A stretch of 64,000 bases of DNA, from NCBI RefSeq assembly GCF_054482595.1, contig NZ_CM137008.1, one strand, 5' to 3'. Position 1 is the first letter of the stretch, and each line of letters starts with the position of its first letter. Made by a program: the position numbers and the translations under genes. Positions 55,017 to 55,112 of this stretch are shown one piece after another. A model generated the notes under the pieces. The model was not told the DNA's origin. It ran no database searches and saw nothing but the letters and a program-made list of their open reading frames with translations.

Positions 55017-55112
55017 ATGAATGTTTCCAGTAGAACTGTAGTACTGATAAATGTCTTTGCTGCTGTTGGTTTGTTTACTCTTATCTCTATGAGATTTGGC
55101 TGGTTTATTTGA
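55017..55112 (+). CDS. yncL: Small membrane protein YncL (31 aa)
   Basis: Hand-translated MNVSSRTVVLINVFAAVGLFTLISMRFGWFI, preceded by aaaaggtgg Shine-Dalgarno and followed by a hairpin gtactgtcagag…ctctgacagtac; below the ORF-track cutoff. Confidence 0.75.
   Translation: MNVSSRTVVLINVFAAVGLFTLISMRFGWFI

Follow-up and report, generated by a model that had tools for sequence, protein, structure and literature searches.

The gap between ortT (54649-54822, minus strand) and patD (55209-56633, minus strand) in an Escherichia coli chromosome raises the question of whether a 31-codon open reading frame (ORF) visible there is a gene and, if so, where its transcript begins and ends and what its product might do. 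A preliminary description of this DNA, prepared from the letters alone, had named the ORF yncL, had assigned it a Shine-Dalgarno sequence and its own terminator hairpin, and had grouped it with a second short ORF, sra, under the label of small membrane proteins. Both ORFs were said to be missing from a mechanical ORF list with a default cutoff of 60 amino acids, which is correct, since their products are 31 and 45 residues long. It was also proposed that other intergenic gaps may hide further small ORFs.

The window, meaning the whole 64-kb stretch of DNA that was analysed (64,000 nucleotides), is part of an E. coli chromosome and matches strain XH990 (NZ_CP019359.1, 2470155-2534154) with 10 mismatches and no indels over its length. 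Relative to K-12 MG1655, the window is the reverse complement of approximately 1.506-1.570 Mb and is colinear with it except at 36938-44305, which is the sole large break. Here, this segment carries an intact gene for the T6SS tip protein VgrG, a 4.2-kb gene for an Rhs core protein and, downstream, a small gene, whereas K-12 has a decayed rhsE region in its place (rhsE pseudogene, ydcD, yncO, yncI, ydcC). A full-length match to the Rfam family group-II-D1D4-2 (RF01999) lies at 37117-37222 (minus strand), in a gap of 594 nt that separates pptA from the gene following the Rhs core, and scores 49.2 bits compared to a gathering score of 36. Similarity to K-12 in this gap is limited to the first 89 nt, and neither a D5/D6 match nor a reverse-transcriptase ORF was found near the RF01999 match. 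The match resembles an orphan intron fragment adjacent to the Rhs element. Elsewhere in the window, Rfam SECIS_3 is matched with 84.3 bits at 21844-21902 (minus strand) within fdnG, a match to be expected given that formate dehydrogenase-N has a selenocysteine codon.

Two short genes below the ORF cutoff

The ATG ORF at 55017-55112 (plus strand) translates to MNVSSRTVVLINVFAAVGLFTLISMRFGWFI, a peptide of 31 amino acids. The RefSeq annotation of NZ_CP019359.1 places a coding sequence at exactly these coordinates, with the product name 'stress response membrane protein YncL' (WP_001303494.1), and the earlier placement between ortT and patD was thus exact to the base. The name had been chosen correctly as well. 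The peptide passes the curated equivalog model NCBIfam NF000537 with 72.5 bits (cutoff 35, E = 1.8e-20), residues 1-30 aligning with model positions 1-30 of 30, and it corresponds to K-12 YncL (b4598), which has the same locus, neighbours (ortT, patD) and length. The orthologous position is kept, with yncL pointing away from ortT and towards the patD side, in the same order as in K-12. The two peptides share 30 of 31 residues, the only substitution being F13 in K-12 versus V13 here (F13V; T37G), and the Shine-Dalgarno sequence, hairpin and 3′ flank of the K-12 gene are identical to those in the window. The V13 form (WP_001303494.1) is widespread and recurs in unrelated strains such as ST131 and MLI107. 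In agreement with the single transmembrane segment proposed earlier, the peptide is hydrophobic overall (GRAVY 1.39) and has a single hydrophobic stretch on the Kyte-Doolittle scale, with a best 15-residue mean of 2.51 from residue 9 and with R6 and R26 as flanking residues.

Of 5426 complete E. coli genomes, 5411 have a 211-bp core that contains yncL, and its identity is never below 95%. The family is nevertheless very narrow; a HMMER search over 1.84 billion cluster representatives gave nine matches at E ≤ 0.001, all of them short YncL-like peptides or fragments. Selection on the gene was assessed without presupposing the ORF, by collecting 80 patD loci of other species and then scanning them for YncL. 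The distribution of YncL at patD loci comprises E. coli, three Citrobacter species and Superficieibacter electus only, and the gene is always convergent with patD. Variable sites in the DNA alignment number 10, 5 and 26 at codon positions 1, 2 and 3, respectively, and dN/dS between E. coli and the three Citrobacter species is 0.07-0.12. The Superficieibacter ORF is 68% identical to that of E. coli, whereas identity in the flanks drops to 31-32%. Residue 13, the site of the difference from K-12, is confined to the hydrophobic amino acids F, V, L and I. Judged from these alignments, the substitution pattern is best described as purifying selection on a protein with a predicted membrane-helix constraint. 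Conservation thus upholds yncL, and comparison with annotated E. coli small proteins, which had been proposed as a check, matches both ORFs to K-12 genes (b4598 and b1480).

The second ORF, sra, spans 14099-14236 (plus strand) and encodes 45 amino acids. Its placement between bdm and maeA was also exact and agrees with the RefSeq annotation. The Shine-Dalgarno sequence GAGGAG (14088-14093, plus strand) is separated from the ATG by a 5-nt spacer. The protein matches Pfam PF08136 ('Ribosome hibernation factor SRA') with 108.2 bits (cutoff 25) and NCBIfam NF007473 with 74.5 bits (cutoff 35), and is identical to K-12 Sra, or protein S22 (b1480); the bdm-sra-maeA order is the same, and the DNA differences are silent only. 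What does not hold is the grouping of Sra with membrane proteins. Sra is a basic, strongly hydrophilic protein (net charge +7, GRAVY -1.27, best 15-residue hydropathy -0.13), and hydropathy analysis found no hydrophobic membrane-spanning segment in it. As cells enter stationary phase, the protein is found on ribosomes along with Rmf, Hpf and RaiA (PMC9959377), and it ranks among the 150 most intense proteins in DIA proteomics (PMC12529367). Downstream, a consensus terminator scan called an intrinsic terminator at 14266-14303 (plus strand), comprising a 12-bp stem (14266-14293) with a 4-nt loop and a T-run. The stem is followed by TTGTTTTTAT, and a Term-seq 3′ end at 14297 falls inside the T-run. 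This end, K-12 1555765 (minus strand), has 30,049 reads in LB at OD 0.4 and 535,854 at OD 2.0 (Adams et al. 2021, PMC7815308). Overall, 14099-14236 is sra, which encodes an abundant basic protein reported to bind ribosomes in early stationary phase, and whose transcript ends at a canonical intrinsic terminator. Another Term-seq 3′ end, at 14063 (plus strand; K-12 1555999, minus strand) with 65,833 reads at OD 2.0, lies in the bdm-sra gap, 36 nt upstream of the start of sra, and because of this end part of bdm transcription appears to stop ahead of sra.

An ATG ORF accompanied by a Shine-Dalgarno sequence is not statistically distinctive in this window. As a control for chance, ATG ORFs of 10-59 amino acids with a strong Shine-Dalgarno sequence were counted in all intergenic gaps, with yncL and sra treated as unannotated. 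Five were observed; dinucleotide shuffles gave 2.9 ± 1.8, with five reached in 57 of 300. With a minimum length of 30 amino acids, two were observed compared to 0.66 in shuffles, a count reached by 35 of 300. Because shuffles often match the observed count, the pattern alone is no proof of a gene, and such calls need conservation or experimental support. It is conservation, family models and published experiments, not the visible pattern, that make yncL and sra real genes. Both are well-known and already annotated in E. coli, and no new biology is established by their recognition. Even so, a 60-amino-acid cutoff hides real genes, and two genuine genes shorter than this were placed to the exact base from raw sequence.

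The suggestion that other gaps may hide small ORFs is borne out for one gene validated in K-12, yddY, while the other mechanical candidates lack support and are as numerous as in shuffles. The yddY-like ORF lies at 2847-2909 (plus strand) upstream of dosC and corresponds to K-12 b4746. It encodes 20 amino acids here versus 13 in K-12; the first 11 residues are identical, and extra bases near the 3′ end of the K-12 gene then put the two in different frames. Published work has detected YddY in tagged form and found it PhoQP-dependent. Sequence of the type present in the window, at 99% identity or above, is carried by 1,211 E. coli records. The majority of records fall at 95-99% identity, and the examples listed among these, including K-12, span 5 nt more; in approximately 1,060 genomes the match ends near 2880, where the alleles diverge. 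PGAP leaves yddY unannotated outside K-12. Another K-12 small ORF, yncO, belongs to a K-12-specific Rhs segment and is absent from the window, 36938-44305 being divergent. Four further gap ORFs were rejected for want of annotation or other support: 17334-17366 (10 amino acids), 16179-16087 (30 amino acids), 45050-45015 (11 amino acids), and 52031-51951 on the minus strand (26 amino acids). The last of these is preceded by AAGGTGAG and ends just before the mcbR start, a position from which it could be an upstream ORF. The toxin gene hicA (62749-62903, minus strand), which encodes 58 amino acids in K-12 and likewise falls under the cutoff, is a frameshifted pseudogene according to the annotation of the near-identical record, and the hicB antitoxin gene is intact.

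Start codon, coding capacity and putative promoter of yncL

A putative sigma-S-type promoter is present at 54959-54987 (plus strand), consisting of TTGCGG, a 17-nt spacer and C-TATACA, with the -10 element at 54982-54987 and a C at -13. The combination of C at -13 with TATACA fits sigma-S -10 elements. The whole block is conserved between E. coli and Citrobacter, and a sigma-70 consensus scan did not call the proposed -10 element. Transcription from this promoter would begin near 54994, about 23 nt upstream of the ATG, giving a predicted transcript of about 179 nt.

Several published observations concern the same control. Genomic SELEX produced a strong RpoS-holoenzyme peak, with an intensity of 28.5, between yncL and ydcX/ortT (PMC5493296). 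In Salmonella, yncL corresponds to a sigma-S-dependent transcript that had earlier been catalogued as the sRNA STnc1110 and that is among the most abundant and most sigma-S-dependent RNAs of that organism (PMC5437024). A translational yncL-lacZ fusion in Salmonella also requires sigma-S, and a flag-tagged protein was not detected there (PMC5437024). Induction of yncL in stationary phase, in minimal medium and upon heat shock is described in PMC12542507 with reference to Hemm et al. 2008, 2010.

The divergent arrangement of yncL and ortT places two small membrane-depolarising peptides on either side of one 194-bp control region, which includes the strong RpoS SELEX peak. The ortT product is a GhoT-like orphan membrane toxin (PF10753), and a weak Term-seq 3′ end is located in the ortT 5′ UTR (K-12 1517357, plus strand). 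An insertion in the ortT-yncL spacer was considered as the reason why a 901-bp query is split in approximately 1,170 genomes, and was rejected on finding the upstream 421 bp intact in 5412 genomes and the break at the patD stop.

The Shine-Dalgarno sequence described earlier for yncL is real: AAGGTGG occupies 55005-55011 (plus strand), is separated from the ATG by 5 nt, and is kept in E. coli and Citrobacter. It includes an in-frame GTG at 55008, a possible alternative start that is discussed below.

An RNA with these properties might be taken for a non-coding sRNA in which the 31-codon ORF is incidental, as the name STnc1110 implies. The transcript is short (approximately 180 nt by prediction) and very abundant in stationary phase, it ends in a stable sRNA-like hairpin, and RIL-seq pairs yncL RNA with the sRNA KilS. 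The first entry in a Salmonella catalogue was that of an sRNA, the tagged protein went undetected in that organism, and an ORF with a Shine-Dalgarno sequence is common enough by chance. This interpretation is very improbable, however, in view of the third-position bias, the dN/dS of about 0.1, and the preservation of the Superficieibacter ORF between diverged flanks, and it is at odds with the detection of native YncL by top-down mass spectrometry (PMC12529367) and with the expression of the translational lacZ fusion in Salmonella. For a translated ORF, the question becomes which codon is used. Initiation at GTG 55008 would yield a 34-amino-acid protein beginning MAKMNVSS, and the mechanical ORF list does extend to this codon, just as STM14_1932 was first annotated from the equivalent GTG. 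Yet the codon lies inside AAGGTGG and has no ribosome-binding site of its own. A 1-nt insertion between GTG and ATG in the divergent E. coli locus L005 leaves the ATG ORF intact and the GTG out of frame, and the upstream stretch is also 1 nt longer in ST131 matches. Superficieibacter has no such GTG, the NCBIfam model starts at the ATG, and the Salmonella authors shifted the start of the orthologue to the ATG. Use of GTG 55008 was rejected on these grounds as scarcely conceivable, and the start of yncL is the ATG at 55017.

Two further searches complete the description of these genes. A scan at Rfam gathering thresholds over all 64 kb placed no RNA family at yncL or sra, and a search of the PDB by sequence found no entry matching YncL or Sra.

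The hairpin and the 3′ end of the yncL transcript

A stem-loop follows the yncL stop codon at 55135-55169 (plus strand), where 55135-55147 and 55157-55169 form a perfect 13-bp stem with a 9-nt loop and no U-tract. Its predicted folding energy is -31.3 kcal/mol (z = -3.3 versus dinucleotide shuffles), and an extended lower stem pairs 55117-55126 with 55169-55178. Among five distinct sequences, 89% of cells are standard pairs compared to 29-51% in registers slid by 1-3 columns, and three pairs are changed on both sides. One of these compensatory changes, U-A to C-G, is seen in a divergent E. coli, and the other two, U-A to G-C and G-C to C-G, occur in Citrobacter. At the same place, the hairpin of Superficieibacter is a different one and rich in G+C. 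A U-tract after the stem is absent on both strands, the tail being CAAGATCATCTCATACTC, and no T-run follows the stem in E. coli, Citrobacter or Superficieibacter. The consensus terminator scan did not call the hairpin, and lacking the U-tract, it was rejected as a canonical intrinsic terminator.

The dominant 3′ end of yncL RNA is at 55172 (plus strand), 3 nt past the stem. It derives from the K-12 Term-seq end 1517039 (minus strand), whose 61-nt context string maps uniquely in the window and whose reads number 75,265 in LB at OD 0.4 and 536,300 at OD 2.0 (Adams et al. 2021, PMC7815308, supplementary file 1). By these counts, yncL RNA is approximately 7-fold more common at OD 2.0 than at OD 0.4. 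In the same study, this end was classed as antisense to patD (PMC7815308), since its distance of 60 nt from the yncL stop exceeds the 50-nt limit for a 'primary' end. A region of Rho-dependent termination, with a Rho score of 16.6 and a significance of 5e-21 (Adams et al. 2021, PMC7815308, supplementary file 2), peaks at K-12 1516753 (minus strand). Converted through the yncL offset, this position is 55458 (plus strand), antisense within patD and approximately 290 nt beyond the hairpin. Furthermore, RNA-seq classes patD and yncL as an overlapping convergent pair, or convergent excludon (PMC12288877), and Rho-terminated RNAs are typically trimmed back by 3′-to-5′ exonucleases (Adams et al. 2021, PMC7815308).

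The claim that yncL has its own terminator hairpin is therefore only partly established. The hairpin is real, belongs to yncL and marks a mapped 3′ end, but it has no U-tract, it was missed by the terminator scan, and a Rho region follows some 290 nt later. The best reading is that the hairpin sets the stable 3′ end, while a substantial share of transcription runs into antisense patD and is ended there by Rho. Partial read-through would be expected because the hairpin lacks a U-tract, and the hairpin itself would define and protect the stable 3′ end, whether by weak termination or by stopping 3′ exonucleases.

Two other interpretations of the hairpin have to be weighed against this one. Seen from patD, on the opposite strand, the structure is a mere 40 nt past the stop codon and folds equally well (-30.2 kcal/mol), and the 96-nt gap has space for only one structure; the hairpin might thus be the patD terminator, or a bidirectional one shared by both genes, rather than a yncL element. 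That it is not a yncL element is unlikely, because it stays with yncL when the neighbouring gene changes. In approximately 1,165 E. coli genomes with a cassette of about 1.3 kb at the patD stop, the hairpin remains beside yncL, and in Citrobacter, where patD is 2.3 kb away, the hairpin follows yncL and carries compensatory changes. In E. albertii, moreover, patD has a canonical terminator of its own and yncL is absent within 1 kb; the 3′ end mapped by Term-seq belongs to the yncL strand, and a U-tract is missing on both strands. The hairpin belongs to yncL, not patD, and could in addition end patD transcripts where a genome has the present arrangement. A somewhat stronger case can be made that the hairpin is a true Rho-independent terminator that functions without a U-tract, with the downstream Rho region only mopping up leakage. 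The 3′ end is sharp, very strong, and just 3 nt past a long perfect stem, to which the extended lower stem gives extra stability. This idea is tenable but doubtful, since the T-run is missing in all three groups, a Rho score of 16.6 within approximately 290 nt implies substantial read-through, patD and yncL overlap by RNA-seq, and exonuclease trimming is typical of Rho-terminated RNAs according to the source paper. A hairpin that fixes the stable end, combined with partial read-through to Rho, therefore remains the preferred account.

The junction at which the yncL 3′ region meets the patD stop (55208/55209) is a polymorphic insertion point. Of 5,416 complete E. coli genomes, about 1,165 have an insert of approximately 1.3 kb there, whose cargo is a CatB-related O-acetyltransferase gene (WP_000867987.1; L086:3582-5001). 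The insert is located exactly at the patD stop, and the hairpin and about 95 nt after it remain with yncL. In Citrobacter, the 2.3-kb gap between yncL and patD holds two unrelated genes (AraC-like, MFS). In all arrangements the junction carries the motif TTATCCTTAAT, which on the other strand reads TAAGGATAA and directly follows the stop of the convergent gene, and its recurrence suggests that deletion or insertion may have occurred via short homology.

A probable stress-related membrane role and its known parallels

Published experiments on the protein are informative regarding its likely role. YncL has been described as a hydrophobic membrane protein (PMC5437024). When produced from a plasmid, it causes, like YohP, a sublethal depolarisation of the inner membrane and nucleoid condensation, and its production makes cells hypersensitive to the pore-forming peptides magainin-2 and pleurocidin (PMC12542507). 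Cleavage of YncL in vivo depends on RseP, including chromosomally encoded RseP, and was not reproduced in vitro (PMC10470546). The papers examined describe no loss-of-function phenotype for yncL.

These data, together with the analyses above, support a model that is very probably correct as a whole. It treats yncL as a self-contained small transcription unit that starts translation at ATG 55017, encodes a 31-residue transmembrane protein, has a hairpin at its 3′ end, and is likely to serve in stress much as YohP does, and it takes 14099-14236 to be sra. The unit is divergent from ortT and convergent with patD, and the ATG, served by AAGGTGG, gives rise to a protein with a single transmembrane helix. 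When cells reach stationary phase or come under stress, YncL would most likely enter the inner membrane, lower membrane potential and metabolic activity in the manner of YohP, and then be removed by the intramembrane protease RseP. By analogy, a physiological role like that of YohP is the most likely one. What has been gained for yncL is the anatomy of the unit, namely the ATG start, the conserved promoter block, the conserved U-less hairpin at the published 3′ end, and a Rho backstop in antisense patD.

The yncL RNA may also have a second role besides coding. More specifically, it might be a dual-function RNA, or the arm of a convergent excludon that lowers patD expression under the sigma-S response. 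This idea is raised because of the conserved U-less hairpin, the 3′ UTR of approximately 60 nt, the pairing with KilS, and the read-through into antisense patD until Rho acts, and it is best regarded as a long shot. If it were true, the coupling to patD, and thus to putrescine catabolism, would be broken in the approximately 21% of E. coli strains with the acetyltransferase cassette.

YncL has parallels among several small membrane proteins. The Hok family and GhoT/OrtT are likewise small membrane peptides that dissipate membrane potential, and HokB and HokE share with YncL the property of being RseP substrates in vivo (PMC10470546). Unlike these toxins, yncL has no antitoxin RNA or protein known or seen, its reported effects are sublethal, and a Pfam scan finds no sequence similarity between YncL and the Hok or GhoT/OrtT families. 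The closest parallel in function is YohP, a stress-induced small membrane protein of 27 amino acids that has been studied alongside YncL. Interference with magainin oligomerisation has been demonstrated for YohP only, and the likeness between the two proteins is functional. Both are induced by sigma-S or in stationary phase and have a single transmembrane helix, overproduction of either one leads to membrane depolarisation and a condensed nucleoid, and both appear in the Salmonella sRNA catalogue, YohP as STnc1330 and YncL as STnc1110.
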